From positions 26,660,001-26,724,000 of the forward strand of contig NW_027266267.1 in NCBI RefSeq assembly GCF_022045235.1: 64,000 nt of DNA, read 5' to 3'. The first letter of the stretch is position 1. Each line of letters begins with the position of its first letter. The stretch comes from Haliotis cracherodii (lineage: Eukaryota). Under the pieces are notes generated by a model. That model did not search any database and was not told where the DNA came from. It saw only the letters and a program-made list of their open reading frames with translations. Positions 5,664-57,894 of this stretch are shown in pieces. A program made the translations under genes and the position numbers.

Positions 5664-22017
<16,354 letters not shown>

Positions 22018-22516
22018 GTTGATGTTCCTAAATCATGTGATGTAGCCCCTCGTAATACTCCGGGAAATGACGCGAGAGAGGCTCGATTTGACATATTATA
22101 TGTGCCGTACAACATATTAAATGTGTCAATAGCACATACGGTATTCTGTTGGACGTTGGTACTCTCTTTTAACTTAGAATAACAATGTTTCCCGTGGTAT
22201 TCACTTAAGATACATACTGGGGTTTATTCGATGCAGAACTAGGTTACCTGCAGATTCGAAGTGGCTAAATCGAATTTGGAACAGAACGCGAACTCTTTAG
22301 GGAATATGATGAGTGATGCATGTGTTGAGTTCAGTGTTTTGAGAAGGTTGTCGTTTTAAATTTCCGATAATAGCTCTTAAACAAATCATGTCACTGTTAC
22401 ACTGAAATATTGTATGACAGACATTGAAAGTATGTAGAACAGATGCCTCATTAGCAAACATTAAACAAACATGAAGCAAACGTTGTTAGGTTTACTTCCA
22501 AAACACATACCTCGTC

Positions 22517-22576
<60 letters not shown>

Positions 22577-23450
22577 ATGTATACGTATATACATAAGTGC
22601 AATAATCTTGAACGCCACGTTAAGCCCCATTTCACTTCGTATGTTGATAAAAAACAACAACCGCATCTTCGCTCATAGACATCTGATGCATACTAACTCC
22701 ATTTAAAGTGAAATGTTCAGTCCATTGTGTGTTTGGATTCAAACGACAGACTCGGATACCGGCGTCACACACTGTGCCAACATAACCAAGCTGTTGGACA
22801 TCACAGACACTCAATGGTTAATGGAGTTCGACTTGACACGGTTCAGTTGACTGACAGGTAGTGCCAGGATCCGCTGATGGAGGTTTGAATCCCAGAATAA
22901 CCTGATTATGAAACTTGGTCTGTCAGCACCAGTCTGTCTGTTTCTGTAAATTAGTAACCTACGACCTGTCCCACTTTGAGTTAGCTGACACGACCTGGTA
23001 TCACGAACATATTGTTCAAATTGACCTACTTTAATTAACTCTTCATTCAGTAAGATTTTGATAAGTGTGTGTTGCTTCGTTGCACTCGACAATGAAATGT
23101 AAGGATGCAAGACAGGTTCATTGATCAGCATTTTCACAGAAAGTGAACGCGTTAGCTGTAATAAATTAATCTACAAAAAATCAGACTTTTCATAATGCAC
23201 CTCATACAGCCTAAAAATCGATAATTATTTTCAACGTGGGTAAAAAACACAAAAACACAGCGAGGCACTTAGTGAAATAGTAAGTGTTCACGTGAGGTTC
23301 GTTAGCGATTTGTATAAATATCTGGTTGTCGTACAAATAGTATTTCCGGAAGCGCATGCGGATAGTCTACATCTGAACTTCCGGTAGTGCGGCGGGAAGG
23401 AGCACGAGTATTGGCGATCACTTCAAAGAAATCTGGCCTCCTGTCCAAGC
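22018..23450. promoter_or_regulatory. Divergent (putatively bidirectional) promoter region between ATP6V1A and NAA50
   Basis: 1433 bp between start codons. Motifs: TCATGTGA 22033-22040, TCACGTGA 23288-23295, ETS-type TTCCGGAA 23344-23351 and ACTTCCGGT 23377-23385, NRF1-like GCGCATGCG 23352-23360. Confidence 0.7.
22522..22568. repeat. (CA)n microsatellite in the divergent promoter region
   Basis: Direct. Confidence 0.97.
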
Positions 23451-23458
23451 ATGACGAG
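23451..23458 (+). CDS. NAA50: NAA50 exon 1 coding part
   Basis: ATG ACG AG|gttgta; phase 2 fits exon 2; lies just downstream of promoter motifs. Confidence 0.75.
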
Positions 23459-26400
23459 GTTGTAATTTAAAATCTGGAGATTGATACAGTAAAACTTAAA
23501 ATGTGTTAAGAAAGGCAGTTTTTCTAACCCTTCATTCAGCAAATAGCATCCTTCCTCAATAATGAATGACGTGATGTCGGAAAATCTAGACTTGATCAGT
23601 CATGTTTGGGTGAAGAGTCGTGTTGAGGATTTCATTTTGATATGTGCGCCTCTGTTGATATCGAGCCTGATCTCGTAAGAAATGATGATGATATTAAAGT
23701 CAATGGGGTAGTAGGGCGATAGTGGTATTACCACGGCTGCGAAGTAAGACAGTTCAGCTGACACGGTTCCTCCATACATTGACTGGCCAAACCAGGAAAA
23801 CATCTCAGAAGCAGGAGAGTGAGTGAGCGAGTGAAATTAACGTCACATCGGCAATATTTCAGCGACGAAACAGTTATATTAATTATAATAAGAATCTGTC
23901 AACGATGGACAGTTAGATAACTATCACAGTTTCGATTTTAAAACTAGTTGAGAACAGTTAAAAGAATACATTTTCAATCAACAATACATTATAAAAATGG
24001 GGTATAGATCACCAGAAACCAAAGTTAGGCCACATTACTGGGGAGCGTGGGGACTTACATTACGGATTTACACAGTGATTCAACAGTAAAAAATCTACTT
24101 GAGATGATTAGCGACTATCAGTGTGTGATTGTTTGGTTGCAAGAGTATATTGCCATCCTTGAATTACCAACAATTAACAAAATCACCGCATAATTTAACG
24201 TGGGGGGACATTTGTTTGAAAGGCTTATACATACAACTTCATGCACAAACCTTGCATAGATCTATGCGATGAATAAATCTAAATAAAATTTTATTTCACT
24301 CTCCTTCGGTGATGTTATAGTTGGACACAGTCCCATTAGGTGCGAACATCATTGCAGTAAGATGAGACTTTACATGCTCACCTGATGGAGTATGTCAGTG
24401 TTCTGACCCTGATGTTATACACGGACATTAGAAGAGGACATAACTGTGCAGAAGGACACAATCAGAAAGAATGATATGTACAATAATCACGTTGACTGAT
24501 AATGTGGGTGGGTGGGAAGTTGTTCTAGGCCTGGGTACCCAGGCTTCATTTTGATTTACCCCATAAAGATCTTGGTTAGATTTGTTCTTCAGCAACCGAT
24601 GCTTGTCATGAGAGGTGACTACTGGGATCGGGTGGTGAGGCTTGCTGACTTAGTTAATGTATGTCGTTGATGCTCATGACATCAATCACTGGAATGTCTG
24701 GTCCAGATTATTTACAAATTGCCCTCATATAGCTGGAATATAGCTGAGTGCAGCATTCAACAGCAAACAAACAGAAAATGTTTCAATATATCCGAACATG
24801 CCCAGCTATCATGGCTATGTACAGGCATGTGTGCACCCCTGCTTCCAAGATCTGTGTATCCTTTAAATCTTTAATGTTTAACATTTGGGTCAGATCAAGA
24901 ACTAGTATTACCCATGTGATCCCACTTTCTTATGAGATGATGATCGACATAACGGGCACATATCAAAATGAGATCCCCAAAACTCCTCCTCCCACTGGGT
25001 CGGTACTTGGCTGGATCTGTGGCGATCCGGGTAGAAAATAGGTTTTCAGCAACCTTTGCTTGCCGTCAGAGGCAACTAACGGCACCTGGTGGTCAGGCTC
25101 TCTGACTTGGTTGATACATGTCATTGATCCCAATTGCGTGAATCGATGCTCATGATATCAATCACTGGATTATCTGGTCCAGACTCGATTATTTACACAC
25201 TGCCGTCATATAGCTGGAATTTTGCGGAGTGCAGCGTTAAACAAACAGTATTAGTATTACTCTGTGTAAGAGAGTGATTGGCTTTATACAACCGAGACAT
25301 TAATATTGTAATCTAGGCTTTGATAAACACTGTAACCCCCGACTCTAAATCTTTAGAGGGGCGGTCGGGTAGCCTAGTGGTTAAAGCGTTCGCTCGTCAC
25401 GCTAAAGACCCGGGTTCGATTCCCGACATGGGTACAATGTATGAAGCCCATTTGTGGTGTCCCCCCGCCATGATATTGCTGGAATATTGCTAAAGGTGGC
25501 GTTAAACCATACTCACTCACTAAATCTTTAGGGACTTATAAATTATGACTACAAAATGGAAATGTTTTTGATATTAACCCATGCATGTATTTGTTGCAGA
25601 GGTCGCATAGAACTAGGGGACATAACCCCGCACAACATCAAGCAGCTCAAGCGGTTGAACCAGGTAGTGTTCCCGGTCACCTACAATGACAAGTTCTACA
25701 AGGACGTCCTAGAAGTGGGAGAACTTGCAAAACTTGGTAAAGGCCTTTATTGTCTTGCATGGTCAGATTTTGTCATAGTTTATCTGTGTTGGTTATGCAG
25801 CAAGCTTAACCCAACAGTTGTTGGTGAAAAATGATATATCCAGTTTAGAATGTTTGAAGTGCATAGTGACAAAAATGATGAATGTAAATAAACATGGATT
25901 AAGTCTCCCTGAAAAATTTACATCTGATAAAAAATAAACAAACTGCTCTGCTGATGTAAATTTTAATGATAGTAATCTTCCTTCAGAAAGTGGGGTGGTG
26001 GGGTAGCCTAATAGTTAAAAGCTAAAAGTTAAAGTTCGATTCCCCACATGGGTACAATGTGTGAAGCCCATTTCTGGTGTCCCACGCTGCGACATTGCTG
26101 GAATATTGCTCAAAGCGTCATAAAACCATACTCACTCATTCGATCACTCCTTCAGAAACAAGCTTCGCATAGTCCAGTCTTTTGTTTCTTTCGATACCAA
26201 GGACTGATGAATATTAGTGTTCAGTCTCGACTCATCTCATATTTTGAACAAGTTGCAGAACATGGTAGAAGTAGGCGGCAAAATTCAAGATTTCTCTAAA
26301 ACTTGAAATACACTCTTGGTCAATTTGTGTTGTGTTTTCTGCTCAAGATGTATAGCCAAACATACTTTGAATATTGGAGGACCTGCATATTGTACATTGA

Positions 26401-29288
26401 AAATAACATGATAATATTTCAAAATGCAAACCAACAGTGATTGGAAGAGTACTTTTCTTGAAACATATTCTCCTACAGCAATAGAGTCATCAAATCAGTT
26501 TTTTTAAACACGGCTGGTTATTGTGATTTGAAACCTCTGCTAGACCAATCAGAATTTGTTATATTCTGAATTCATCATGATTCATTGTAAAATAATTATT
26601 AATTCCTTTTTAGCTGATCATTTAAGTTTGTTATATCCTAGATAATTACTTGTTTAGATATACCAAAAGTCTGCAGGTGAATAGGTCAGTAAGTGCGTCG
26701 TCACTCAGTGTTCGGGTCGCCCGGTCGCCTAAGGCATCCCATTTCACTGGGTGGAGTTGCCAGTGTTCGTTCGGGTTGACTTTTGAAACTACCAGTCCAC
26801 CAGGACTGGCAACTCTAAAAATTACCAGTCCCCACTAAATTCTGTCAGTCCCAACTTTTAGCACATAAAAAAAAAGTATGAAAATTACCTGGTTTTAATT
26901 CTTTTAACATTATGTTCCATACAATGACATCATCTCTGAAGTAACTTTGTTAAATCTACATGTCATTTACATAAAGATGTCACATTTTTCTCTTTTTTTG
27001 TTGTTAATATTTCAAGCCGAAGTTGCTACATATATTTAGTTAACCTCGAAGCAAAGCAAAATGTGATTTGCTTGCACTAAATATAGACCATGGGAAACTG
27101 TGATGGTAACAGACAAGCTGACTTCTTTCAAAACATATACTTATGTGAATATAGCCAATGTTTTGTTCAAAAACAAAGATTTATAAGGTACTTTCTATGT
27201 GGGTCCACAGGGACTGGCAGTCAAATGAATTACCGGTCCAAGCTTAATTGTACCGGTAAAAGACTGGTAATTACCGGTAAACGGGAACACTGAGTTGCGT
27301 CCCTTGGGCACACCAGAAACCAATGATTGTGGGTTCGAATCCCGATTATGTTTCTAGGTTTGTCAGCTCAATACCCGTGCTCATGGGTTTCACTGAAGTG
27401 GTAAACGTCTAAAACCTGCATCACTTCGGGCTTTCCTCCGACATTAAGCTGACACGCCGCGACATAATTGAATACGGTTCCAAAATACTGTTAATAACAA
27501 CTCACTCACTCTGTGTTCCAGCCTACTACAATGACATAGTTATAGGAGCAGTGTGCTGTAGGATCGACACGTCTGAGAACCAGAGAAGACTTTACATTAT
27601 GACTCTGGGCTGTCTGGCGCCGTACAGGAGACTGGGCATAGGTAAGTCTTTCCATCAGGGGCACACCGCCTACCTGGTCTAGAGGATAGGGCACCTGTGC
27701 AGAGAGCAGGCCGTGTTGTTACCCTTCGTAGTTCGGCATTAAGGGGCTAAAACAAAGCCTGTTCGGCTTGGAGTCTGTGTACTGTGTCTGAATGGGGTAT
27801 GCATGTTGAACCGTGGCATGGTATCTCAGTGTGCTGGCACTTTATGATCAGCATTAGTCCAGCCTAGTACAAGCAGATAGATGCTGATGATGTCAATCAT
27901 TGGATTTTCTGGTCCAGACTTGATTATAAACAGACTGCCGTGATATAGCTGGAATATTGCTGAGTGCAGCATGAAACAACAAACAAGATATGAATAACTA
28001 TTATCTCGTCCAGTCTTGAATATTTACAGGCCACCGTTAAACAGCTGGAATATTGCTGTGTGCGGCGTTAAACATTAAACAAACAATAATTGGGTTCTAA
28101 ACAGGGTTTGAAATTGAGGACGTCCATATGCTAAGATACGTCAAGGACCTTACATCCTGTGAAGATCTGGGGCAGAATAGGTCTTCAGCAACCCATGCTT
28201 GCTATAAAAGGCGACTATGCTTGTTGTAATTGGCGATTAACGGGATCGGATGGTCTGGCTCGCTGACTTGGTTGATGCATGTCACCGATCCCAATTTGCG
28301 TGGGTCGATGCTCAATCAATCACTGGATTGTCTGGTCCAGACTTGATTATTTACAGACCGCTCTCATATAGCTGGAATATTGCTGAGTACGGCATTAAAA
28401 AACAAATAAACAAGATCAAGGACCTTACTTGTAGCCCTGGTTGTAGTTAGCGTTGACAAATTGTGCCCTCCATTATTTGTTTCTATCAGTATGTGTGTAT
28501 ACAGGGGCTGACATTGTCTGACTATGTTCCAGGAACAGTGATGCTACAACATGTCCTCAGGATATGTGACAAGGACGGAAACTTTGATAATGTATTTCTG
28601 TAAGTACTGCGCTCTGAGGAGAGTTGTTTTTATCACCATTCTATTTAATCATCACGATGTTGGGCGGTGGGGTAGCCTTGTGGTTAAAGTGTTCGCTTGT
28701 CACTCCGAACACCCAGGTTCGATTTCCAAATGGGTACAATGTGTGAAGCCCATTTCTCCTGTTCCCCGCCGTGATATTGCTGGAATATTGTTTAAAAGGG
28801 TGTATAACTCACTCACTCACGCACTAAATCACTCACTCAATTCGCTGTGCAGAGTTGTGTCCCTTGAGCATGCCAGACACCTGTGATTGTGGGTTCGAAT
28901 CCCAGTGATTATGTTTCTAGGTTTCTACCATACGCGTGCTCATGGGTTTCACCGGAGTGGTAAACGTCTGAGACCTGCATCACTTCAGGCTTTCCTCCCA
29001 CATTAAGCTGACATGCTGTGATATAACTGTAATATTGTTCAATGTGGTGTTAATCCCAACTCACTCACTCCCTCTTGTGTTTGCAGCCATGTACAAATAA
29101 ACAACGATGGTGCAATTAGGTTCTATGAAAAGTTTGGGTTCGAAATTGTGGAAGAAAAACAGAACTATTACAAGCGAATAGAGCCAGCGGACGCCTATGT
29201 GTTACAGAAGTCCTTCCGCTTGACAAACAACAACCAACCAGCTAGCGAGGAGACCACGTCCGACAACACAGAGATGATCGAATCCTGA
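23451..29288 (+). CDS. NAA50: N-alpha-acetyltransferase 50 (NatE catalytic subunit, san), complete gene, 5 exons, 177 aa
   Basis: join(23451-23458,25600-25736,27522-27641,28533-28599,29087-29288) = 534 nt; [36 protein letters not shown]...[18 protein letters not shown]...[19 protein letters not shown]...[15 protein letters not shown]; GNAT acetyl-CoA motif RRLGIG. Confidence 0.97.
24559..24775 (+). mobile_element. Family D
   Basis: Match to family D consensus. Confidence 0.85.
25017..25247 (+). mobile_element. Family D
   Basis: Match to family D consensus. Confidence 0.87.
25358..25520 (+). mobile_element. SINE family A, full length
   Basis: A/B boxes; exact 12-bp TSD CTAAATCTTTAG (25345-25356, 25520-25531). 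Confidence 0.95.
25600..25736 (+). CDS. NAA50: NAA50 exon 2
   Basis: [45 protein letters not shown]. Confidence 0.97.
25990..26148 (+). mobile_element. SINE family A
   Basis: TSD TCCTTCAGAAA (25979-25989, 26148-26158). Confidence 0.88.
26714..27511 (+). mobile_element. SINE family B split by a nested DNA element
   Basis: Head 26714-26760 and body 27293-27511 rejoin into a family B copy; outer TSD tcactcagtgttc/tcactctgtgttc. Confidence 0.88.
26761..27292. mobile_element. Non-autonomous hAT-like DNA transposon (MITE), 532 bp
   Basis: TIR CAGTGTTC...GAACACTG, TSD AGTTGC (26755-26760, 27293-27298), subterminal ACCAGTCC/TTACCGGT repeats. Confidence 0.85.
27522..27641 (+). CDS. NAA50: NAA50 exon 3
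   Basis: [40 protein letters not shown]. Confidence 0.97.
27662..27880 (+). mobile_element. SINE family C (Meta-domain-like), decayed
   Basis: ggagtctgtgtactgtgtctgaatgggg...ggcatggtatctcagtg. Confidence 0.72.
27880..28412 (+). mobile_element. Cluster of three family D copies (two 3' fragments, one full copy at 28156-28412)
   Basis: Three GCTGGAATATTGCTG tails in tandem. Confidence 0.87.
28533..28599 (+). CDS. NAA50: NAA50 exon 4
   Basis: [23 protein letters not shown]. Confidence 0.96.
28661..28840 (+). mobile_element. SINE family A
   Basis: Family A head, body and tail; directly followed by a family B copy. Confidence 0.9.
28841..29070 (+). mobile_element. SINE family B, 5'-truncated
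   Basis: Family B body; tail ends 16 nt before NAA50 exon 5. Confidence 0.9.
29087..29288 (+). CDS. NAA50: NAA50 exon 5 (stop)
   Basis: [66 protein letters not shown]. Confidence 0.97.
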
Positions 29289-29802
29289 ATATATTCATGA
29301 CAGATGACTCGGTTGATTTCCTGATGTTACAAAGACATTTTTTGAATGCAAGAATTTAGATTTGAAGTGCTTTAAACTTACTAGTTCTTCAACAGAACAA
29401 TCTGTTGGTAATGTTGTCCTCTGGTACAAAGTTTTCAAGAATGTGGGACTTTCTCCTGGAATCAGAACAATACAGGTGCTTTCATTGTGTTCGAGACAGA
29501 ACTGAAATTGAAGCTTTCCATTGACATGAGTCTTTCCATGGTCCATCCCCAGTCAGTGGACGTTGTCCTGTGGGTTCCTTATAGACTACTGTAAGCCTGG
29601 CAAGTTTTGCGAGCAGAAAAGTACTTCGAAGACTGCGAACAGCACACTTGCAATAGATTCATGACACAGTTATTTTTGCAGACCAACAAGGAACTAAAGA
29701 CGTAAGGAGGCATCTTTCGTTTATTCACTTCCACACAGGGTCAAATCAGCCAGAAATGATTAAGTAAATAATCCTCACATCCTGTTTCCTCATGACCCAT
29801 TG

Positions 29803-34349: not shown

Positions 34350-34812
34350 TGCGTCGTGTTAACATTTTCGAGGTTACATGATTAGTAATGATGGTCTTTC
34401 CTTGGTCATTCCTTGGTCTCGCATCCTCTTACTCGTTCGGTCCATCCTTCTCCATTCTAGTTCAATGAGGAGACTGATTGAAGGTGTGAGTGAGTGAGTA
34501 TGGTTTTTGCAATATTCCAGCAATATCACGGCAGGGGACACCTGAAATGGGCTTCACACATTGTACCCAGGTAGGGATTGAAACCTGGGTCTTCGGCGTG
34601 ACGAGCGAACGCTTTAGCCACTAGGCTACCCAACCGCCCCACAGATGCGTCAGGATATGGTCTAAGGGAGTTCTCTCACAGAACAGTAGCATCGGTGAAA
34701 GAGCTGTGGCATTTGCATCTCGTACCATATCAGAAGAGGAGAGGAAAAACTCTGTAGGAGAGAAAGAAGCCTTAGCATGCATGTTGGCATGTGAGAAGTG
34801 GCACACCTACCA
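34350..34812 (+). pseudogene. Ty3/Gypsy pol remnant (RT end and RNase H)
   Basis: GYMISNDG near 34372; DASGYGL...ERAVAFASRTISEEERKNSVGEKEALACMLACEKWHTY at 34644-34810; frameshifted. Confidence 0.85.
34487..34640 (-). mobile_element. SINE family A inserted in a Gypsy remnant
   Basis: Reverse-complement match to the other copies. Confidence 0.9.
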
Positions 34813-35049
34813 TGGTTTGTCCCCCTACGTGTCATGTACACATGTCTATACAAAATTACATGATAGTTTCTTAAAGAACTACATCCGTCATGGGTCTTAA
34901 ATTAAACAAAATTCAGATTTTGTTGGGTACAGGGTATTCATGGTCAAGTACCGTATTGATGTTTCATACACTTTTCTGAATTTCGAGTTATTTTGCAATT
35001 CATCGTTCTCATTTGGAGTCAAACGGACTGTAGAAGGAAACCAGGGTCA

Positions 35050-36709: not shown

Positions 36710-39700
36710 ACATCGGATGTGGTTCAGGCTGAGGGGTGGGGACATCGTATGTTGGTTCAGGCTGAGGGATGGGGACATCGTATGTTGGTTCAGGCGGAGG
36801 GATGGGGACATTGTATGTTGGTTCAGACGGAGGGATGGGGACATCGTATGTGGGCTCAGGCTGAGGGATGGGGACATCGGATGTGGGTTCAGGCGGAGGG
36901 ATGGGGACATTGTATGTTGGTTCAGACGGAGGGATGGGGACATCGTATGTGGGCTCAGGCTGAGGGATGGGGACATCGGATGTGGGTTCAGGCTGAGGAC
37001 TGGGGACATCGTATGTGGGTTCAGACGGAAGGATGGGGACATTGTATGTGGGCTCAGACTGAGGGGTGGGGACATCGTATGTGGGCTCAGGCTGTGGGTT
37101 GGGGACATCGGATGTGGGTTCAGGCGGAGGGATGGGGACATTGTATGTTGGTTCAGGCGGAGGGAAGGGGACATCGTATGTGGGCTCAGGCTGAGGGATG
37201 GGGACATCGTGTGTGGGCTCAGGCTGAGGAGTGGGGACATCAGATGTTGGTTCAGGCGGAGAGATGGGGACATCGTATGTGGGTTCAGGCGGAGGGATGG
37301 GGACATTGTATGTTGGTTCAGACGGAGGGATGGGGACATCGGATGTGGGTTCAGGCGGAGGGTTGGGGACATCGTATGTTGGTTCAGGCGGAGGGATGGG
37401 GACATCGGATGTGGGCTCAGGCAGAGAGATGGGGACATCGGATGTGGGTTCAGGCTGATGGGTGGGGACATCAGATGTGGTTCAGGCTGAGGGATGGGGA
37501 CATCGGATGTGGGTTCAGGCTGTGGGTTGGGGACATCGGATGTGGGCTCAGGCTGAAGAGTGGGGACATCGTATGTTGGTTCAGGCGGAGAGATGGGGAC
37601 ATCGGATGTCGTTCAGGCGGAGGGATGGGGACATTGTATGTTGGTTCAGGCGGAGGGAAGGGGACATCGTATGTGGGCTCAGGCTGAGGGATGGGGACAT
37701 CGTATGTGGGCTCAGGCTGAGGAGTGGGAACATCGTATGTTGGTTCAGGCGGAGAGATGGGGACATCGTATGTGGGTTCAGGCGGAGGGAAGGGGACATC
37801 AGATGTGGGTTCAGGTTGAAGGGTGGGGACATCGGACATGGGTTCAGATTGAGCTGTGGGGGCATCAGATGTGGGTTCAGGATGAAGGTTCGGAACATCA
37901 GATGAGGGTTCAGGTTGAGCAGTGGGGGCATCGTATGTGGGTTCAGCTCGAGGGGTGGGGACATCAGATGTGGGTTCAGGTTGATGACTGGGGACATCGG
38001 ATGTGGGTTCAGGTTAATGGCTGGGGACATCGGGTGTGGGTTCTGGCTAAAGGGTGGGGACATTGGATGTGGGTTCTGGCTGAGGGATTGGGACATCGGA
38101 TGTCGTTCAGGCTGATGGGTGGGAACATTGGATGTGGGTTTAGGCTGAGGGGTGGGGACTTCAGATGTGGGTTCAGGTTCAGTAGTGGGGACATCGGATG
38201 TCGTTCAGGCTGAGGGGTGGGAACATTGGCTGTGGGTTTAGGCTGAGGGGTGGGGACTTCAGATGTGGGTTCAGGTTGAGTAGTGGGGACATCAGATGTG
38301 AGTTTAGGCTGATGGGTGGGGACTTCAGATGTGGGTTCATGCTCAGGGGTGGGGACTTCAGATGTGGGTTCAGGTTGAGTAGTGGTGACATCAGAGGTGA
38401 GTTCAGGCTGAGGGGTGGGGACATCGTATGTGGGTTCAGGCTGAGGGTTGGGGACATCAGATATGGGTTCAGGCTGAGGGATGGGGACATCGTATGTGGG
38501 TTTAGAATGAGGGGTTGGGACATCAGATGTAGGTTCAGGTTGAAGGGTGGGAACATTGGCTGTGGGTTTAGGCTGAGGGGTGGGGACATCAGATGTGAGT
38601 TTAGGCTGAGGGGTGGTGACATCAGATGTCGTTCAGGCTGATGGGTGGGAACATTGGCTGTGGGTTTAGCTCGAGGGGTTGGGACATCAGATGTGGGTTC
38701 AGGTTCAGTAGTGGGGACATTGGATGTCGTTCAGGCTGAGGGGTGGGAACATCGGCTGTGGGTTTAGGCTGAGGGGTGGGGACATCAGATGTGAGTTTAG
38801 GCTGAGGGGTGGTGACATCAGATTTCGTTCAGGCTGAGGGGTGGGAACATTGGATGTGGGTTTAGGCTGAGGGGTGGGGACTTCAGATGTGGGTTCAGGT
38901 TGAGTAGTGGGGACATCAGATGTGGGTTTAGGCTTAGGGGTGGGGACATCAGATGTCGTTCAGGCTGAGGGGTTCGGAACATTGGATGTGGGTTTAGGCT
39001 GAGGGGTGGGGACTTCAGATGTGGGTTCAGGTTGAGTAGTGGGGACATCAGATGTGGGTTTAGGATGAGGGTTGGGGACTTCAGATGTGGTTTCAGGTTG
39101 AGTAGTGGGGACTTCAGATGTGGGTTTAGGCTGAGTAGTGGGGACTTCAGATGTAGGTTCAGGCGGAGGGATGGGGACATCGTATGTGGGCTCAGGCTGT
39201 GGGTTGGTGACATCAGATATGGGTTTAGGCTGAATAGTGGGGACCTCAGATGTGGGTTTAGGCTGAGGGGTGGGGACTTCAGATGTGGGTTTAGGCTGAG
39301 GGATGGGGACTTCAGATGTGGGCTCAGGCTGAGGGGTGGGGACATCGGATGTGGGTTCAGGCTGAGGGATGGGGACATCGGATGTGGGTTCAGGCGGAGG
39401 GATGGGGACATTGTATGTTGGTTCAGGCGGAGGGAAGGGGACATCGTATGTGGGCTCAGGCTGAGGGATGGGGACATCGTATGTGGGCTCAGGCTGAGGA
39501 GTGGGAACATCGTATGTTGGTTCAGGCGGAGAGATGGGGACATTGTATGTGGGTTCAGGCGGAGGGAAGGGGACATCAGATGTGGGTTCAGGTTGAAGGG
39601 TGGGGACATCGGACATGGGTTCAGATTGAGCAGTGGGGGCATCAGATGTGGGTTCAGGATGAAGGTTCGGAACATCAGATGAGGGTTCAGGTTGAGCAGT

Positions 39701-42700
39701 GGGGGCATCGTATGTGGGTTCAGCTCGAGGGGTGGGGACATCAGATGTGGGTTCAGGTTGATGACTGGGGACATCGGATGTGGGTTCAGGTTGATGGCTG
39801 GGGACATCGGGTGTGGGTTCTGGCTAAAGGGTGGGGACATTGGATGTGGGTTCTGGCTGAGGGATTGGGACATCGGATGTCGTTCAGGCTGATGGGTGGG
39901 AACATTGGATGTGGGTTTAGGCTGAGGGGTGGGGACTTCAGATGTGGGTTCAGGTTCAGTAGTGGGGACATCGGATGTCGTTCAGGCTGATGGGTGGGAA
40001 CATTGGCTGTGGGTTTAGGCTGAGGGGTGGGGACATCAGATGTGGGTTCAGGTTGAGTAGTGGGGACATCGGATGTCGTTCAGGCTGAGGGGTGGGAACA
40101 CTGGCTGTGGGTTTAGGCTGAGGGGTGGGGACATCAGATGTGGGTTCAGGTTGAGTAGTGGGGACATCAGATGTGAGTTTAGGCTGAGGGGTGGTGACAT
40201 CAGATGTCGTTCAGGCTGATGGGTGGGAACATTGGATGTGGGTTTAGGCTGAGGGGTGGGGACATCAGATGTGAGTTTAGGCTGAGGGGTGGTGACATCA
40301 GAGGTGGGTTCAGGCTGAGGGGTGGGGACATCGTATGTGGGTTCAGGCTGAGGGTTGGGGACATCAAATATGGGTTCAGGCTGATGGATGGGGACATCGT
40401 ATGTGGGTTTAGAATGAGGGGTTGGGACATCAGATGTAGGTTCAGGTTGAGGGGTGGGAACATTGGCTGTGGGTTTAGGCTGAGGGGTGGGGACATCAGA
40501 TGTGAGTTTAGGCTGAGGGGTGGTGACATCAGATGTCGTTCAGGCTGATGGGTGGGAACATTGGATGTGGGTTTAGGCTGAGGGGTTGGGACTTCAGATG
40601 TGGGTTCAGGTTCAGTAGTGGGGACATCAAATATGGGTTCAGGCTGATGGATGGGGACATCGTATGTGGGTTTAGAATGAGGGGTTGGGACATCAGATGT
40701 AGGTTCAGGTTGAGGGGTGGGAACATTGGCTGTGGGTTTAGGCTGAGGGGTGGGGACATCAGATGTGAGTTTAGGCTGAGGGGTGGTGACATCAGATGTC
40801 GTTCAGGCTGATGGGTGGGAACATTGGATGTGGGTTTAGGCTGAGGGGTTGGGACTTCAGATGTGGGTTCAGGTTCAGTAGTGGGGACATCAGATGTGGG
40901 TTTAGGCTTAGGGGTGGGGACATCAGATGTCGTTCAGGCTGATGGGTTCGGAACATTGGCTGTGGGTTTAGCTCGAGGGGTGGGGACTTCAGATGTGGGT
41001 TCAGGTTCAGTAGTGGGGACATCGTATGTCGTTCAGGCTGAGGGGTGGGAACATTGGCTGTGGGTTTAGGCTGAGGGGTGGGGACATCAGATGTGAGTTT
41101 AGGCTGAGGGGTGGTGACATCAGATGTCGTTCAGGCTGATGGGTGGGAACATTGGCTGTGGGTTTAGGGTGAGGGGTGGGGACATCAGATGTGGGTTCAG
41201 GTTGAGTAGTGGGGACATCAGATGTGAGTTTAGGCTGAGGGGTGGTGACATCGGATGTCGTTCAGGCTGAGGGGTGGGAACATTGGCTGTGGGTTTAGGC
41301 TGAGGGGTGGGGACTTCAGATGTGGGTTCAGGTTGAGTAGTGGGGACATCAGATGTGAGTTTAGGCTGAGGGGTGGTGACATCAGATGTTGTTCAGGCTG
41401 ATGGGTGGGAACATTGGCTGTGGGTTTAGGCTGAGGGGTGGGGACATCAGATGTGAGTTTAGGCTGAGGGGTGGTGACATCAGATGTCGTTCAGGCTGAG
41501 GGGTGGGAACATTGGATGTGGGTTTAGGCTGAGGGGTGGGGACTTCAGATGTGGGTTCAGGTTCAGTAGTGGGGACATCAGATGTGGGTTTAGGCTTAGG
41601 GGTGGGGACATCAGATGTCGTTCAGGCTGAGGGGTTCGGAACATTGGATGTGGGTTTAGGCTGAGGGGTGGGGACATCAGATGTCGTTCAGGCTGATGGG
41701 TTCGGAACATTGGCTGTGGGTTTAGCTCGAGGGGTGGGGACTTCAGATGTGGGTTCAGGTTGAGTAGTGGGGACATCGTATGTCGTTCAGGCTGAGGGGT
41801 GGGAACATTGGCTGTGGGTTTAGGCTGAGGGGTGGGGACATCAGATGTGAGTTTAGGCTGAGGGGTGGTGACATCGGATGTCGTTCAGGCTGATGGGTGG
41901 GAACATTGGCTGTGGGTTTAGGGTGAGGGGTGGGGACATCAGATGTGGGTTCAGGTTGAGTAGTGGGGACATCAGATGTGAGTTTAGGCTGAGGGGTGGT
42001 GACATCGGATGTCGTTCAGGCTGAGGGGTGGAAACATTGGCTGTGGGTTTAGGCTGAGGGGTGGGGACTTCAGATGTGGGTTCAGGTTGAGTAGTGGGGA
42101 CATCAGATGTGAGTTTAGGCTGAGGGGTGGTGACATCAGATGTCGTTCAGGCTGATGGGTGGGAACATTGGCTGTGGGTTTAGGCTGAGGGGTGGGGACA
42201 TCAGATGTGAGTTTAGGCTGAGGGGTGGTGACATCAGATGTCGTTCAGGCTGAGGGGTGGGAACATTGGCTGTGGGTTTAGGCTGAGGGGTGGGGACTTC
42301 AGATGTGGGTTCAGGTTCAGTAGTGGGGACATCAGATGTGGGTTTAGGCTTAGGGGTGGGGACATCAGATGTCGTTCAGGCTGAGGGGTTCGGAACATTG
42401 GATGTGGGTTTAGGCTGAGGGGTGGGGACATCAGATGTCGTTCAGGCTGATGGGTTCGGAACATTGGCTGTGGGTTTAGCTCGAGGGGTGGGGACTTCAG
42501 ATGTGGGTTCAGGTTCAGTAGTGGGGACATCGTATGTCGTTCAGGCTGAGGGGTGGGAACATTGGCTGTGGGTTTAGGCTGAGGGGTGGGGACATCAGAT
42601 GTGAGTTTAGGCTGAGGGGTGGTGACATCAGATGTCGTTCAGGCTGATGGGTGGGAACATTGGCTGTGGGTTTAGGGTGAGGGGTGGGGACATCAGATGT

Positions 42701-45700
42701 GGGTTCAGGTTGAGTAGTGGGGACATCAGATGTGAGTTTAGGCTGAGGGGTGGTGACATCGGATGTCGTTCAGGCTGAGGGGTGGGAACATTGGCTGTGG
42801 GTTTAGGCTGAGGGGTGGGGACTTCAGATGTGGGTTCAGGTTGAGTAGTGGGGACATCAGATGTGAGTTTAGGCTGAGGGGTGGTGACATCAGATGTCGT
42901 TCAGGCTGATGGGTGGGAACATTGGCTGTGGGTTTAGGCTGAGGGGTGGGGACATCAGATGTGAGTTTAGGCTGAGGGGTGGTGACATCAGATGTCGTTC
43001 AGGCTGAGGGGTGGGAACATTGGATGTGGGTTTAGGCTGAGGGGTGGGGACTTCAGATGTGGGTTCAGGTTCAGTAGTGGGGACATCAGATGTGGGTTTA
43101 GGCTTAGGGGTGGGGACATCAGATGTCGTTCAGGCTGAGGGGTTCGGAACATTGGATGTGGGTTTAGGCTGAGGGGTGGGGACTTCAGATGTGGGTTCAG
43201 GTTGAGTAGTGGGGACATCAGATGTGGGTTTAGGATGAGGGTTGGGGACTTCAGATGTGGTTTCAGGTTGAGTAGTGGGGACTTCAGATGTGGGTTTAGG
43301 CTGAGTAGTGGGGACTTCAGATGTAGGTTCAGGCGGAGGGATGGGGACATCGGATGTGGGCTCAGGCTGTGGGTTGGTGACATCAGATATGGGTTTAGGC
43401 TGAATAGTGGGGACCTCAGATGTGGGTTTAGGCTGAGGGGTGGGGACTTCAGATGTGGGTTTAGGCTGAGGGATGGGGACTTCAGATGTGGGCTCAGGCT
43501 GAGGGGTGGGGACATCGGATGTGGGCTCAGGCTGAGGGATGGGGACATCGGATGTGGGTTCAGGCGGAGGGATGGGGACATTGTATGTTGGTTCAGGCGG
43601 AGGGAAGGGGACATCAGATGTGGGTTCAGGTTGAAGGGTGGGGACATCGGACATGGGTTCAGATTGAGCAGTGGGGGCATCAGATGTGGGTTCAGGATGA
43701 AGGTTCGGAACATCAGATGAGGGTTCAGGTTGAGCAGTGGGGGCATCGTATGTGGGTTCAGCTCGAGGGGTGGGGACATCAGATGTGGGTTCAGGTTGAT
43801 GACTGGGGACATCGGATGTGGGTTCAGGTTGATGGATGGGGACATCGGGTGTGGGTTCTGGCTAAAGGGTGGGGACATTGGATGTGGGTTCTGGCTGAGG
43901 GATTGGGACATCGGATGTCGTTCAGGCTGATGGGTGGGAACATTGGATGTGGGTTTAGGCTGAGGGGTGGGGACTTCAGATGTGGGTTCAGGTTCAGTAG
44001 TGGGGACATCGGATGTCGTTCAGGCTGAGGGGTGGGAACATTGGCTGTGGGTTTAGGCTGAGGGGTGGGGACATCAGATGTGAGTTTAGGCTGAGGGGTG
44101 GTGACATCAGATGTCGTTCAGGCTGATGGGTGGGAACATTGGCTGTGGGTTTAGGGTGAGGGGTGGGGACATCAGATGTGGGTTCAGGTTGAGTAGTGGG
44201 GACATCAGATGTGAGTTTAGGCTGAGGGGTGGTGACATCGGATGTCGTTCAGGCTGATGGTTGGGAACACTGGGTGTGGGTTTAGGCTGAGGGGTGGGGA
44301 CATCAGATGTGGGTTCAGGTTCAGTAGTGGGGACATCGGATGTCGTTCAGGCTGAGGGGTGGGAACATTGGATGTGGGTTTAGGCTGAGGGGTGGGGACA
44401 TCATATGTGAGTTTAGGCTGAGGGGTGGTGACATCAGATGTCGTTCAGGCTGAGGGGTGGGAACATTGGATGTGGGTTTAGGCTGAGGGGTGGGGACTTC
44501 AGATGTGGGTTCAGGTTGAGTAGTGGGGACATCAGATGTGAGTTTAGGCTGAGGGGTGGTGACATCAGATGTCGTTCAGGCTGATGGGTGGGAACATTGG
44601 CTGTGGGTTTAGGCTGAGGGGTGGGGACATCAGATGTGAGTTTAGGCTGAGGGGTGGTGACATCAGATGTCGTTCAGGCTGAGGGGTGGGAACATTGGAT
44701 GTGGGTTTAGGCTGATGGGTGGGGACTTCAGATGTGGGTTCAGGTTCAGTAGTGGGGACATCAGATGTGGGTTTAGGCTTAGGGGTGGGGACATCAGATG
44801 TCGTTCAGGCTGAGGGGTTCGGAACATTGGATGTGGGTTTAGGCTGAGGGGTGGGGACTTCAGATGTGGGTTCAGGTTGAGTAGTGGGGACATCAGATGT
44901 GGGTTTAGGATGAGGTTGGGGACTTCAGATGTGGTTTCAGGTTGAGTAGTGGGGACTTCAGATGTGGGTTTAGGCTGAGTAGTGGGGACTTCAGATGTAG
45001 GTTCAGGCGGAGGGATGGGGACATCGGATGTGGGCTCAGGCTGTGGGTTGGTGACATCAGATATGGGTTTAGGCTGAGTAGTGGGGACCTCAGATGTGGG
45101 TTTAGGCTGAGGGGTGGGGACTTCAGATGTGGGTTTAGGCTGAGGGATGGGGACTTCAGATGTGGGCTCAGGCTGAGGGGTGGGGACATCGGATGTGGGC
45201 TCAGGCTGAGGGATGGGGACATCGGATGTGGGTTCAGGCGGAGGGATGGGGACATTGTATGTTGGTTCAGGCGGAGGGAAGGGGACATCGTATGTGGGCT
45301 CAGGCTTTGGGATGGGGACATCGTATGTGGGCTCAGGCTGAGGAGTGGGAACATCGTATGTTGGTTCAGGCGGAGAGATGGGGACATCGTATGTGGGTTC
45401 AGGCGGAGGGATGGGGACATCAGATGTGGGTTCAGGTTGAAGGGTGGGGACATCGGACATGGGTTCAGATTGAGCAGTGGGGGCATCAGATGTGGGTTCA
45501 GGATGAAGGTTCGGAACATCAGATGAGGGTTCAGGTTGAGCAGTGGGGGCATCGTATGTGGGTTCAGCTCGAGGGGTGGGGACATCAGATGTGGGTTCAG
45601 GTTGATGACTGGGGACATCGGATGTGGGTTCAGGTTAATGGATGGGGACATCGGGTGTGGGTTCTGGCTAAAGGGTGGGGACATTGGATGTGGGTTCTGG

Positions 45701-46612
45701 CTGAGGGATTGGGACATCGGATGTCGTTCAGGCTGATGGGTGGGAACATTGGATGTGGGTTTAGGCTGAGGGGTGGGGACTTCAGATGTGGGTTCAGGTT
45801 CAGTAGTGGGGACATCGGATGTCGTTCAGGCTGAGGGGTGGGAACATTGGCTGTGGGTTTAGGCTGAGGGGTGGGGACATCAGATGTGAGTTTAGGCTGA
45901 GGGGTGGTGACATCAGATGTCGTTCAGGCTGATGGTTGGGAACACTGGGTGTGGGTTTAGGCTGAGGGGTGGGGACATCAGATGTGGGTTCAGGTTCAGT
46001 AGTGGGGACATCGGATGTCGTTCAGGCTGAGGGGTGGGAACATTGGATGTGGGTTTAGGCTGAGGGGTGGGGACATCATATGTGAGTTTAGGCTGAGGGG
46101 TGGTGACATCAGATGTCGTTCAGGCTGAGGGGTGGGAACATTGGATGTGGGTTTAGGCTGAGGGGTGGGGACTTCAGATGTGGGTTCAGGTTCAGTAGTG
46201 GGGACATCAGATGTGGGTTTAGGCTTAGGGGTGGGGACATCAGATGTCGTTCAGGCTGAGGGGTTCGGAACATTGGATGTGGGTTTAGGCTGAGGGGTGG
46301 GGACTTCAGATGTGGGTTTAGGCTGAGGGGTGGGGACTTCAGATGTGGGTTCAGGCTCAGGGGTGGGGACTTCAGATGTGGGTTCAGGTTGAGTAGTGGT
46401 GACATCAGAGGTGGGTTCAGGCTGAGTAGTGGGGACATCGTATGTGGGTTCAGTCTGAGGGTTGGGGACATCAGATATGGGTTTAGGCTGAGGGGTTGGG
46501 ACTTCAGATGTGGGTTCAGGCTGAGGGATGGGGACATCGTATGTGGGTTTAGAATGAGGGGTTGGGACATCAGATGTAGGTTCAGGTTGAGTAGTGGGGA
46601 CATCGGATGTGG
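36710..46612 (+). repeat. G-rich 33-bp satellite array, ~300 units, with 32-bp variants and higher-order blocks
   Basis: Consensus GATGTGGGTTCAGGCTGAGGGGTGGGGACATCA; 11-aa periodic ORFs on both strands. Confidence 0.98.
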
Positions 46613-53354: not shown

Positions 53355-56300
53355 ATGGCGCTTTTAAAGGCAAGACCAGACATTCCCAGTCCACCGTGCA
53401 AGACATCGTATTCACTCAGTCACAACCTAGGAAATCAAGGAGCTGTGAGAAGTGTTGAGAGTGAAAGGATGATACACCAGGACCGGCCCAGCGCACGCCA
53501 CAAGAGAAAAGTAGATAATGATGGCAGTGACTGCAATCATAACTTTCATAATTCTGAGAAAATTCATCGAGGACATTCTTTCCCTCATGTTGCAGTTGAC
53601 AATGGCGAGTATAAAATAATCAGTACCTTATAAATCGTTTTCTCAAAAGCATGGTGTCTAATGTTAACACGGTGTCTGCTACTTTGTTCCTCATCCCAAT
53701 GCAGACACTCTCGACACCCGTACATGTCTAATAATATCACAGGTGTTCAGATTCAATTAAGTGAACAATGAGACAAGAATATATCAGTGGTTGATATTGT
53801 CCTATTAGTATCACGATAGCCAAGCACATCATCATCTTGATAAAAAAATGTGGAGGAGAAACCACTGACTACAGGACAGAAAAGGGAGTTATTTGCATGT
53901 GGTGTAGTATTTAATACAAAGCAAGAACTAAATACTTGAAGACGAGTCGATAGGTATTTAGTAGAACACTGTGAAAAACAGTTTGTAGAGATAATGATTA
54001 AGATACAATAACAGCATGTCAGTTATTCAAACGTCTCGGACAACACTACCCTTTCATAAAGGCCAAGGCCCAGTTTCACAAGCCAGCTTTAGTGCTGAGG
54101 TGATCGTAACTAAGAATTTAACCTTAGACCTTGTTAAGGTTGACGTCCTCTTCCACGAAACAACCTTAAGAAAGGCGAACGTAAGTTTCGATCAAAATCT
54201 ACAGTTTGTCGAGGCAAGGGAGTTAAGTCCAGTTTCCAACCTTGCCGAACTAGGCTGGAATTTCTGGGCTCGAACTTAGCGACACCAGTGGTTATGACGA
54301 GATGTGTCCCTTCTATGCCTCTCCTTTTGACCAATCAGATTCCACCTCTTGTATCACTTACATTTGCTTCCAACAAAATGGCAGTGCCCAGTCAAGAGGA
54401 CCTGATCAATACTAGTTATCAAGATCTATATTGTGATAAAACGGGTCTTACATCGCAAAGTGCATCAAATCACGTGAGCATCTTGATTAAAAACAATCGA
54501 CCGAAAACTGCACGAACCGGATTTCTATTTCGTTACGCGATTTTGATTGGACTATGCATAGACTCTATAGTTCAGCCATAATATAACTCCATAATACGAG
54601 CCTAGTTCGGCAAGGGTGGAAACTGGACTTTCAAAGTCAGTTAAGTCACTTGCCTCGGGAAAATGACATTTGGTACGACCCTACCTAAACTCACTAAGGT
54701 GTAAGTTCAGACTAAGGTAACCTTTAATTAAAGGTTGTTTTGTGGAACAGGACCATGTTGGCAAAATGGACCGCTGAGTCACGAAATCCCCTGTACCATA
54801 TATCTCTGTTTATATGTATTATAGATGTGGAAGACAAGACAGACGACGGCAACCTTACATTCGAAGGTGAGACTATTTTACGCTGCCCAATGCAATATTA
54901 CAGCAAAAATACGACAACCGGCAATCACTTGTCCTGAACAAAATATTTTGTTGATACCAAGGGCAATGATCTCCCAACATACAGTAACCACCTGAGCCAC
55001 TTAAGTCGGAAACACATGAAGATCCGGGTTAGAATAGGTCTTCAGCAACTCATGCTTTCAAAACGTTTCTTTGGAAGAAATGTGAAGGACATTTCCAAAT
55101 TTGAAGCATCAGTGCGAAGAATGATTTCCGATGCAATTCCCTATTTTGTTTATTATCATATGTTCTCGTGTTTTTCTTTTTAGTTCGTTATAACCGTAGT
55201 TCGTTATAAGCATATATAAGTATAACTACAGCAAATTGTCGGGTCCAAAAAAGTAAGTTCGTTATATCGCTCAGTTCGTTATAAGCGTGTTCGTTATAAC
55301 AGTAGTTTACTGGAACTTGTGTTTAATTACTAATTATTTGTTATCTGCATTGATAATAACTCGACAGAAGTTCACTGGATCATTACACGAAATGAGACGA
55401 GTAAACAACAGAACCTTAAGTAATATTTGTTGTGTTCCATTTTGTCAGGTTCCCCCCTCGACCCTCTGGACTTGGTTGAAGAACGTGTGTCAACACTCAA
55501 CCCATTCATGCCAGCTGTGTTTATCTTTCGCTGGGTTCAAGGTTTGTATACTGATTCATCAGAGCAATCTGCAACAAGAAATACAATGACGTTTTTGACA
55601 GTTTCATACATGTTTGGCTGATTTGTTAATAAATCACTTAATTAGCCTTCCGTCCTCGGACATAACCGTCAGTGAATTTTCTGTTATTCTTATCACATCA
55701 TTGTATTGGTATATTTGTGGTGTAATGTGCGTTTCTGTTATGGCTTTTTTAACAGATTCTGCTCAAGCGGAAAGGTTGGTACATGCTTCCCTGAATCTTG
55801 GTACAGAACTTGGTCTCACGGAAGCAGATCTTCAGCCTCCTAGCGTTCAGAAGACACTGATTTTCCTTAGTAACAAAACAGTTCCACTGCTGTGTGTTGT
55901 TGACATCAGTCCTGACAGGTCTGCTGCTATGTCATACGCAAGGTCACTGGCCCGGGAACTCACACACAAAATGAGAGATTTTACAGACGAATCCTTCAAC
56001 TTTCTCTGCACGGTGGTGGACGGGGCTGAGTCAACAAACATCAACTGGACACAGATGTCTGCCACGTTGCTTCAGGAGAATGGACACCTCTACCCATATG
56101 AAAGAATGACTATGTACCAAAGAAAGTTCCAGAACCTCCAGAAAAGCCTACATTTTGTGATGTCGGCCACAAGCGTACCCTACTACACTTTGAACGGTAT
56201 GCCAGCACGGTCAAAACAAGACGATACTGACAACGTTCCAATCTATCAACTGACACGGGAACAGCTGGAGTTCATGCAAGATCTTCTGAAGAAAGACAAG

Positions 56301-57894
56301 CCTTGTTTCATAACCGGCAAGCCAGGAAGTGGGAAGACAGTCATGGGCGTTGAGATTGCAAGACGTCTGAATCAGGATGGCGGCGCCCTGTTGATCTGTC
56401 ATGATCTCGCTCTCAAAGACAAACTTGCGTAAGTATTTATTAAACAACGGTGTGAGTGATTTAGTGTTTGTTTGTTTCTTTGTTGTTTAACGCTGCACTC
56501 AGCAATATTCCAGCTATATGACAGCGGTCTGTAAATAATGGAGTCTGCACTAGACAATCCAGTGATTGATATGAGCATCAATCCACGCAATTGTTTGTTT
56601 GTTTGTTTGTTTGTTTGTTTGTTTGTTGTTTTTATGCCGCACTCAGCAATATTCCAGCTATATGACGGCGGTCAGTAAATAATCGAGTCTGGACCAGACA
56701 ATCCAGTGATTGATATCATGAGCATCTACCCACGCAATTGGGATCGATGACATGCATCATTCAAGTCAGCGAGCCTGACCACCCGATCCCGTTAGTCGCC
56801 TTTTACGACAAGCATAGTCGCCTTTTACGGCAAGCATGGGTTGCTGAAGACCTATTCTACCCCGGATCTTCACGGGTCAGTGAGCAAGTTTGTGAGTTAA
56901 CACCATGTTTTATATGTATGTCAGTTATAATATAAAGCACAGTATATTATTCCAAATAAAAGGAACTAAATATTTCAAAGGTTAAGTAAGGATAAGTTTT
57001 ATGGATGAACAACTTCTTTATTACAATTAAGAGCAACGTTTCGATGTTAGAACCTACACCGAAACGTCGCTCTTAATTGTGATAAAGAAGTTGTTCATCA
57101 ATGAATCTTATCCTTACTTAGTACTCCAACTTCTAAATGCCGATGCTTGTCACAAGAGGCGACTAACGGGATCGGGTGATCAGGCTCGCTGACTTGGTTG
57201 ATGCATGTCATCGATTCCAATTGCGTGGATCGATGCTCATGATATCAATCACTGGATTGTCTGGCTCAGACTCGATTATTTACAGACCGCCGTCATAAAG
57301 CTGGAATATTGCTGAGTGCGGCGTAAAGCAACAAACCAAACCAAAACCAAAGCCAAATGCCTATCAAAGAAATAAATTCAAAAGTTGCTGTTTTGTTAGT
57401 CTATCTTTTGTTTATGGGATATACAATATGTCTTGAAGTGTTTTGCATGAGTGTATGTTTACGAATGAGTAAGGGTATGACTGACATTATAATATCGTAT
57501 CAGCATTATTTTAGCGACGAGAACAAGTCATGAGATTAAAATCACGTTTTGCTGGAGCAAACATTTTACCATTTTTACACAGGTTTTATACCTATTTTGT
57601 GAAACCTTACGAATACATAGTGAAATCAGCCGCGAAGTGCTTTAAGAATCTAGTGAAAAGACTCTGAACCATTCTAAAGTGTGACACATTGAAAGCGTTT
57701 ATTCATTGTCTGCTGTTTTTTTTGTCTGTAGGGATTCGTCAAATTGCAAGGATATCAGAACATGCCCTGATGGCTGGAAGCAGTCAAAGTGTAAACACAT
57801 CGTAGCAGTGAAAGTTCGAGAGAAGGATCTTCACAAATACAAGGGTGTGGAACCGCTGATATCTGGCGGCAAGCTGCTTGTTTTCTCCGAATAA
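53355..57894 (+). CDS. Schlafen-like protein (SWADL/linker-like domain plus truncated SF1-helicase-like P-loop domain), ~406 aa
   Basis: Model join(53355-53604,54825-54866,55449-55541,55756-56428,57732-57894) = 1221 nt, phases consistent; first intron GC-AG. YQLTREQLEF...CFITGKPGSGKTVMGVEIARR...LLICHD...KHIV aligns by eye to SLFN11 LLTAQQYEI...LFVHGLPGSGKTIMAMKI...LYVCEN...QHIVIDE (recalled). First three exons are less certain. Confidence 0.7.
54210..54657 (+). mobile_element. MITE with TIR CGAGGCAAG...CCTTGCCGAACTAGGCT, apparently nested in an outer TIR element (54144-54754)
   Basis: Inverted ends of ~50 bp; outer inverted pair cgtcctcttccacgaaacaacctt / aaggttgttttgtggaacaggacc. Confidence 0.8.
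55183..55312. mobile_element. MITE end with five TTCGTTATA subterminal repeats
   Basis: Repeats end in gtttactg; other end not found. Confidence 0.55.
55756..56428 (+). CDS. Schlafen-like gene main exon (linker domain and Walker A GKPGSGKT)
   Basis: ttttttaacag acceptor, gtaagt donor, 673-nt open frame. Confidence 0.88.
56466..56876 (-). mobile_element. Two tandem family D copies (partial 56466-56592, full 56593-56876)
   Basis: Match to family D consensus, (GTTT)n tails. Confidence 0.9.
56983..57120. repeat. 138-bp near-perfect palindrome (Penelope-like terminal sequence, head-to-head)
   Basis: taagtaaggataag...aagagcaacgtttcg / cgaaacgtcgctctt...cttatccttactta. Confidence 0.9.
57142..57354 (+). 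mobile_element. Family D, 5'-truncated
   Basis: TSD AAATGCC (57135-57141, 57355-57361). Confidence 0.9.
57732..57894 (+). CDS. Schlafen-like gene terminal exon
   Basis: tttttttgtctgtag acceptor, phase 2 matches; DSSNCKDIRTC...KHIVAVKV...KLLVFSE*. Confidence 0.72.

Follow-up and report, generated by a model that had tools for sequence, protein, structure and literature searches.

The head-to-head V-ATPase subunit A and NAA50 genes of Haliotis cracherodii, a divergent gene pair of probable bilaterian ancestry

In the abalone Haliotis cracherodii, the genes for the catalytic subunit A of the V-type proton ATPase and for NAA50, the catalytic subunit of NatE, are neighbours on opposite strands and diverge from each other. 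Is this the arrangement known from human, was it inherited from the ancestor of protostomes and deuterostomes, and do the two genes depend on a common promoter? We addressed these questions in a window of 64 kb (the whole stretch of DNA analysed, to which all positions refer), which consists of AT-rich, intron-rich animal DNA. A Pfam scan of 91 reading frames detected ATP-synthase alpha/beta-family domains on minus-strand frames from about 7.5 to 14.9 kb; on the plus strand it detected a GNAT domain at 27.4 kb. The exon boundaries of both genes were taken from the sequence and then spliced in silico.

The minus-strand gene (5664..22017) has 15 coding exons, located at 22017-22015, 15979-15886, 14863-14735, 13781-13692, 13292-13171, 12604-12467, 12024-11873, 11348-11186, 10647-10539, 9761-9524, 9366-9159, 8904-8845, 7849-7755, 7063-6892 and 5756-5664, and encodes 621 aa. 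The spliced frame is open, every intron is GT-AG and the model is identical to the H. cracherodii RefSeq protein in 621 of 621 residues. Its best PDB match is a vertebrate V-ATPase A chain (1187 bits over residues 10-621) and a salamander V-ATPase A is 82.5 % identical to it. By its full-length match to the eukaryotic V1 subunit A, the predicted product identifies the gene as the ATP6V1A orthologue.

The start codon (22017-22015) is the only codon of the first coding exon and is directly followed by a GTGAGT donor and by an intron of 6 kb. Together with a 5′ leader of roughly 40-50 nt it forms the first exon at 22015..22064 (minus strand), as delimited by the sequence and by contigs of sequencing runs. 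The resulting M-A-G N-terminus is common to many molluscs and an amphioxus model. A second in-frame ATG (15979-15968) is found in exon 2, four codons downstream, and corresponds to the vertebrate start. We do not prefer it as the true start, though the vertebrate start aligns there, because the longer N-terminus is the one in RefSeq and is also found in many molluscs and amphioxus. Some gastropod database models begin at this second ATG. Intron 3 (13782..14734, minus strand) carries a GTATCCTT donor and a branch-like site TCCTTGAC 8 nt before the AG, which we take to be U12-type signals. In human, ATP6V1A belongs to the listed minor-intron genes (PMC7507305).

The plus-strand gene (23451..29290) has five coding exons at 23451-23458, 25600-25736, 27522-27641, 28533-28599 and 29087-29287 (stop codon to 29290), with an open spliced frame and GT-AG introns. 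The model of 177 aa agrees with the H. cracherodii RefSeq protein in all 177 residues, including the start of the protein. In PDB it matched an NAA50 chain (E 2e-87) and a second NAA50 entry (6.8e-53), while acetyltransferases other than NAA50 matched at 6e-13 or weaker. Among the Nat catalytic subunits, NAA50 is thus by far the nearest to the predicted protein, which identifies the gene as the orthologue of NAA50 (san). The first exon (23394..23458) comprises a leader of about 40-57 nt and eight coding nucleotides from the ATG at 23451; it is defined by contigs that contain exon 2, and the depth in bin 23392-23532 fits. Two in-frame GT donors, 3 nt apart, follow this exon (23459-23467). The alternative donor at 23461 would keep the frame, but the contigs and orthologues fit an exon end at 23458. 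Intron 1 contains dense, very high-copy short repeats (24520-25650), with a depth of up to 14 million in the DNA-like run X19. The V-ATPase A and NAA50 genes are non-paralogous, as their Pfam and PDB matches belong to unrelated families.

Between the V-ATPase A ATG at 22017 (minus) and the NAA50 ATG at 23451 (plus) there are 1,433 bases, so both spliced models bear out the distance and the opposite orientation of the start codons given in the initial annotation. To place the 5′ ends, contigs of four of 24 sequencing runs were compared with positions 21700-25900; we guess that three of the runs are RNA (X1, X5 and X13), and the fourth is DNA-like (X19). On the NAA50 side, contigs with exon 2 from X1, X5 and X13 extend 60, 63 and 45 letters upstream of it, so that their 5′ ends fall near 23397, 23394 and 23412, respectively. 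On the V-ATPase A side, contigs of X1 span about 22015-22064 and those of X13 about 22015-22056, as derived from depth and end distances. The contig 5′ ends of the two genes are therefore 1,330-1,356 bp apart. This gives a weak hint that the abalone start sites are more than 1 kb apart, against the under-1-kb definition of a head-to-head pair, since contigs cannot show true starts and repeats filled the tables of joints and loose ends. Stretches of the spacer lacking cover in the three putative RNA runs were left out of the evidence.

The human arrangement given in the initial annotation is borne out by published tables. Li et al. 2006 (PMC1487180) tabulate ATP6V1A on the plus strand and MAK3 (GeneID 80218) on the minus strand with starts 812 bp apart, and the same distance for mouse. 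Chicken and fugu are given there as "H2H orthologs", the pair being one of 42 conserved between human, chicken and fugu. The same human pair appears in Yang and Yu 2009 (PMC2670823), with 80218 named NAT13, and GRCh38 starts at 113,747,027 and 113,746,300, i.e. 727 bp apart, are listed in PMC12672016. With 727-812 bp between start sites in these tables, the human pair falls under the 1-kb definition. The orthologues and the divergent orientation listed for human (PMC1487180, PMC2670823, PMC12672016) are those seen in the abalone. The dimensions differ: in human the starts are 727-812 bp and the coding regions 32.8 kb apart, whereas in abalone the contig 5′ ends are about 1.33 kb and the ATGs 1.43 kb apart, the latter so close because the first V-ATPase A exon carries the start codon. 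Co-expression of the human pair, given without a matched control, was significant in two of three array sets (r of 0.70 and 0.93) and not in the third (0.22; PMC1487180). In iron-loaded mouse liver, Naa50 is reported as up and Atp6v1a is among the unaffected candidates (PMC3651197). None of the three papers on the human pair covers molluscs.

Linkage in invertebrates was gauged from accession numbers or locus tags and from scaffold lengths, which give neither orientation nor distance. GenBank protein numbers usually track the position on the scaffold, RefSeq numbers less strictly. Both genes were seen in 20 molluscs (Magallana gigas and M. angulata counted once), which are related species, so the counts are not independent. 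Consecutive accessions or tags, silent on orientation, were found in nine of the 20. These are the gastropods Lottia (ESP02178/9), Pomacea (XP_025100629/30), Littorina (KAK7105577/6) and Nucella (KAL8587237/8) and the bivalves Mizuhopecten (OWF55216/7), Solemya (tags 002831/2), Mytilus coruscus (CAC5421738/7), M. galloprovincialis (VDI39263/2) and M. trossulus (XP_063439486/5); the rows of M. trossulus also hold a second pair of numbers, 248 apart. Pomacea also has another NAA50 model, which is shorter and lies three locus tags away (12806, 12809). Two further species (M. edulis and M. californianus) have accessions within six numbers, and four share only the scaffold length (Haliotis rubra with 770 kb, H. 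cracherodii, Pecten and Gigantopelta). Three oysters (Magallana, Crassostrea virginica and Ostrea edulis) show the same chromosome length with distant numbers, and Saccostrea cucullata and Argonauta show different scaffold lengths. The pair thus appears to be separated in four oysters and Argonauta, five of the 20 molluscs.

Outside molluscs, a partial V-ATPase A of the sea cucumber Apostichopus japonicus reports the same scaffold length, 905,396 bp, as its NAA50 (PIK60315); a full-length V-ATPase A copy, 98 % identical, is on a 399-kb scaffold. In amphioxus, eIF3F is two accession numbers from V-ATPase A. An 844-aa model of B. floridae appears to fuse eIF3F and V-ATPase A and is probably an annotation artefact. 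NAA50 of amphioxus, Lamellibrachia, roaches, planthoppers and an ostracod, for all of which V-ATPase A was obtained, was not found in protein representative and cluster searches. The best 120 of 1123 matches included no V-ATPase A from Owenia, Tubulanus, Lineus, Octopus, Aplysia or pulmonates. A metagenome scan by NAA50 alignment recovered V-ATPase A sequence at none of 80 loci, only 15 of which had at least 3 kb upstream; many of these loci resemble mRNA or contigs from non-animals, and the scan was excluded as evidence. In Drosophila the pair is broken. The fly gene san (CG12352 according to PMC5171793) has another head-to-head partner, CG13201, at a tabulated distance of 613 bp (PMC2670823). 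A search for Vha68 and CG3762 in seven supplement files gave no match.

Adjacency is therefore found in vertebrates and molluscs, the echinoderm contributes a shared scaffold length only, and in the fly the genes are not neighbours; the 5′-5′ orientation is seen in abalone and four vertebrates (human, mouse, chicken and fugu). The identical orientation in vertebrates and abalone, the wide adjacency in molluscs and the echinoderm scaffold match make common descent likely, and judging from these gene orders the pair was probably inherited from the bilaterian ancestor. Against such ancestry stand the five of 20 molluscs lacking adjacency, and an accession order that tells neither orientation nor distance. 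Retention since the protostome-deuterostome split, as first proposed for this locus, is thus likely from the human arrangement, the mollusc adjacency and the one echinoderm scaffold. Neither of the two outcomes that would contradict it, human genes not adjacent and divergent or all intermediate lineages without linkage, occurred.

A CpG-undepleted domain (21600..23900, observed/expected 0.98) spans both 5′ ends. The spacer itself has a ratio of 0.94, which is reached by two of 34 other tiles of the window (tile median 0.62). It also contains a (CA)31 microsatellite (22516..22577, repeat scan) and, at 22580..22640, a piece of a high-copy interspersed repeat, recognised by a X19 depth of 301,971 in bin 22546-22686, against about 26-53 in single-copy bins, and by 755 loose ends at 22635. 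Weaker repeat pieces fall in bins 22264-22404 (X19 depth 820) and 22828-22968 (191). These pieces have almost no copies within the 64-kb window, and X19 contigs are collinear with it over 21700-22478 and 22832-23856. No informative inverted or direct repeats were found in the spacer.

Regarding promoter motifs, the spacer contains sequences which we take to be ETS, NRF1-like and E-box sites. The initial annotation had placed them between the two genes. They are indeed present, but instead of being spread along the spacer they are clustered at its NAA50 end: the 5′ end of NAA50 is at most about 110 bp away, that of V-ATPase A some 1.2-1.3 kb. The NAA50-proximal module (23343..23384) consists of overlapping ETS motifs at 23343-23352 (starting at 23343 and 23346), an NRF1-like core at 23352-23360 and another ETS motif at 23378-23384, and it holds two of the three CCGGAAG and the only GCGCATGCG of the window. 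A palindromic E-box with T/A flanks, TCACGTGA (23288..23295), which has a CLEAR-type core, precedes the NAA50 5′ end by around 100 bp. At the opposite end, the V-ATPase A leader contains an M-box of the MiT/TFE type, TCATGTGA (22033..22040, plus strand), a pattern match at which binding may be supposed, so that MiT-type boxes are present at both ends of the spacer. The M-box and CLEAR definitions follow PMC6355916, which also reports that fly Mitf controls V-ATPase genes.

The motif counts were compared with those in 2000 dinucleotide-shuffled versions of 22015-23458 (1,444 bp) and in 34 other tiles of the window, from which the tested tile and the satellite at 36.7-46.6 kb were excluded. For motifs chosen after looking at the sequence, the real count was matched by one of 2000 shuffles for strict ETS and by one of 2000 for the NRF1 core, by 47 for the MiT type and by 947 for the E-box. 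None of the 34 tiles reached the ETS, NRF1 or MiT counts of the spacer, and eight reached its E-box count. In the whole window, ETS and MiT patterns occur at chance level, and the M-box pattern is not enriched (8 matches versus 7.76 expected). The ETS and NRF1 motifs of the spacer are thus beyond chance and the bare E-box is not, since 947 shuffles reach its count. With motifs beyond chance and undepleted CpG, the NAA50 end has the sequence features of a GABP/NRF1-type housekeeping promoter.

The reading that we favour, by a modest preference, is an ancestral bilaterian 5′-5′ pair which in abalone forms two back-to-back housekeeping promoters within one short, CpG-rich open region. The ETS/NRF1/E-box module directly upstream of NAA50 would bind its factors and serve NAA50, and V-ATPase A would use an independent core promoter of its own about 1.3 kb away, with the M-box in its leader. 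The middle of the spacer would tolerate insertions. The junction may have lasted as a small target between two essential promoters in slowly rearranging lineages; it would be breakable, and has broken. The one-sided motifs and the repeat pieces in the spacer argue for two promoters, and the distance between contig 5′ ends adds its weak hint. The different partner of fly san and the discordant response of Naa50 and Atp6v1a in the iron-loaded mouse liver (PMC3651197) point the same way. Counter to this are the co-expression of the human genes, significant in two of three array sets (PMC1487180), the human starts less than 1 kb apart, and the reported ability of GABP sites to make promoters bidirectional (PMC2077898). 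Moreover, MiT-type boxes occur at both spacer ends (the count matched by 47 of 2000 shuffles) and one CpG-rich domain covers both starts.

Alternatively, the ancestral pair could have a shared bidirectional promoter, in which ETS (GABP)/NRF1 and MiT-type boxes drive both genes and selection keeps their co-regulation. We consider this possible, with distinctly lower probability than two promoters. The motifs are 1.2-1.3 kb from the V-ATPase A 5′ end, with repeat pieces in between, the pair is broken in fly and apparently in Argonauta and oysters, and we know of no functional link between the two proteins. The discordant mouse liver response (PMC3651197) also speaks against it, and neighbours are co-expressed anyway, with r of 0.21 in controls versus 0.30 as given in PMC3514665. 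In its favour are the ETS and NRF1 motifs beyond chance and the human pair, which is under 1 kb and positively co-expressed in two of three sets (PMC1487180). Reports that GABP occupies more than 80 % of human divergent promoters (PMC2077898), that ancient 5′-5′ pairs are enriched for co-expression (PMC3514665), and that in vertebrates EIF2S1 and V-ATPase subunit D form an NRF1-coregulated head-to-head pair (PMC13508932) agree with it as well. Overall, the shared regulatory constraint that the initial annotation took the arrangement to imply is a hypothesis, and in abalone a somewhat disfavoured one. An extended version, in which the MiT/TFE boxes and the ETS/NRF1 module would have coupled lysosomal proton-pump output to N-terminal acetylation by NatE for more than 550 million years, seems doubtful to us. 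If it were true, starvation or lysosomal stress should raise both genes in abalone and vertebrates, and lineages that lost the pair should have rewired the link.

Both readings with an ancestral pair compete with convergence, i.e. head-to-head adjacency gained independently in vertebrates and molluscs by genes from one ancestral chromosome, which we consider improbable. It would fit the oysters, where the sequences that bear the two genes have equal lengths but the accessions are not close, and therefore same-chromosome ancestry with shuffling is real; moreover, the orientation is shown in two lineages only. Schultz et al. 2026 (PMC13508932) describe ancient stable pairs as rare and mention convergent colocalisation, which weighs against an ancestral pair. 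On a rough estimate, the same neighbour in the same orientation arises on one chromosome for about 1 in 1000-2000 per gene, and therefore about 5-10 chance pairs are expected when two genomes are compared, whereas the conserved pairs reported number in the hundreds (PMC3514665). The echinoderm scaffold match, which falls on the deuterostome side, also opposes convergence. About equally improbable is neutral persistence alone, an ancestral pair whose breakage has no selective cost, which would accord with the several losses (fly, probably Argonauta and oysters), with loss rates of such pairs tracking general genome evolution rates (PMC3514665) and with being named as possible by Schultz 2026 (PMC13508932), but fits poorly with a spacer that in human, mouse and abalone has stayed below about 1.5 kb when introns of both genes run to kilobases, and with the more frequent retention of 5′-5′ pairs than of other orientations (PMC3514665, PMC1487180).

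Ancient conserved neighbour pairs were described as a class, with about 600 members, by Irimia et al. 2012 (PMC3514665), so this pair will not surprise a specialist. That paper reports 595 non-paralogous conserved pairs (CAMPs), neighbours in at least four of 11 major animal lineages, of which 593 already existed at the origin of bilaterians. Amphioxus and Lottia keep 448-492 CAMPs, and 68.6 % of those in Lottia are 5′-5′ (PMC3514665). The abalone pair resembles the commonest type of CAMP, being non-paralogous, shared by vertebrates and a gastropod, and 5′-5′ with a short spacer (PMC3514665). It is unnamed in the main text of Irimia 2012 and may or may not be in its CAMP list (PMC3514665). The vertebrate pair EIF2S1-ATP6V1D with NRF1 binding (Schultz et al. 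2026, PMC13508932) is similar in that an unrelated housekeeping gene is the head-to-head neighbour of a V-ATPase subunit gene and in having NRF1 in the spacer. As reported there, it is vertebrate-specific, whereas the present pair spans protostomes and deuterostomes and its NRF1 is a motif only. The divergent GABP/NRF1-type promoters of Collins et al. 2007 (PMC2077898) likewise combine ETS, an NRF1-like core and CpG richness; compared with that account, the candidate abalone sites are at one end of a spacer apparently longer than 1 kb.

Literature searches, judged from the search listings, returned no paper on invertebrate conservation of the ATP6V1A/NAA50 pair. The pair has no row among 12 of 16 supplement files of Gaiti 2017 (PMC5429095) or among the supplement places shown of Davila Lopez 2010 (PMC2871058), which include two of three ATP-synthase rows, and it is not in two small supplement files of Schultz 2026 (PMC13508932), whose large pair tables are probably elsewhere. 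A pair tabulated in vertebrates since 2006 is now extended to molluscs and, with probability, back to the ancestor of bilaterians. It offers a compact test case of whether shared regulation or a small, fragile spacer holds ancient 5′-5′ pairs together, with a natural comparison between scallops, mussels and snails, which keep the pair, and oysters and an octopod, in which it is seemingly broken.

We also recorded other features of the window. At 36710-46612, a G-rich unit of 33 bp is repeated about 301 times in an array; one of its minus-strand frames could read as an 11-residue repeat rich in Pro/Thr/Ser/Glu, the frames shift often, and the array could be a satellite or a mucin-like coding repeat. 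A retrotransposon fragment with reverse-transcriptase RNase H is found at 34625-34900 (plus strand). A frame of 277 aa at 55599-56432 (plus strand) has weak matches to STAND/NACHT-type NTPases at its end and is perhaps part of an immune-type gene. At 62348-63276 (minus strand), helix-turn-helix and DDE_3 domains in two frames indicate a Tc1/mariner-like transposase, apparently frameshifted.
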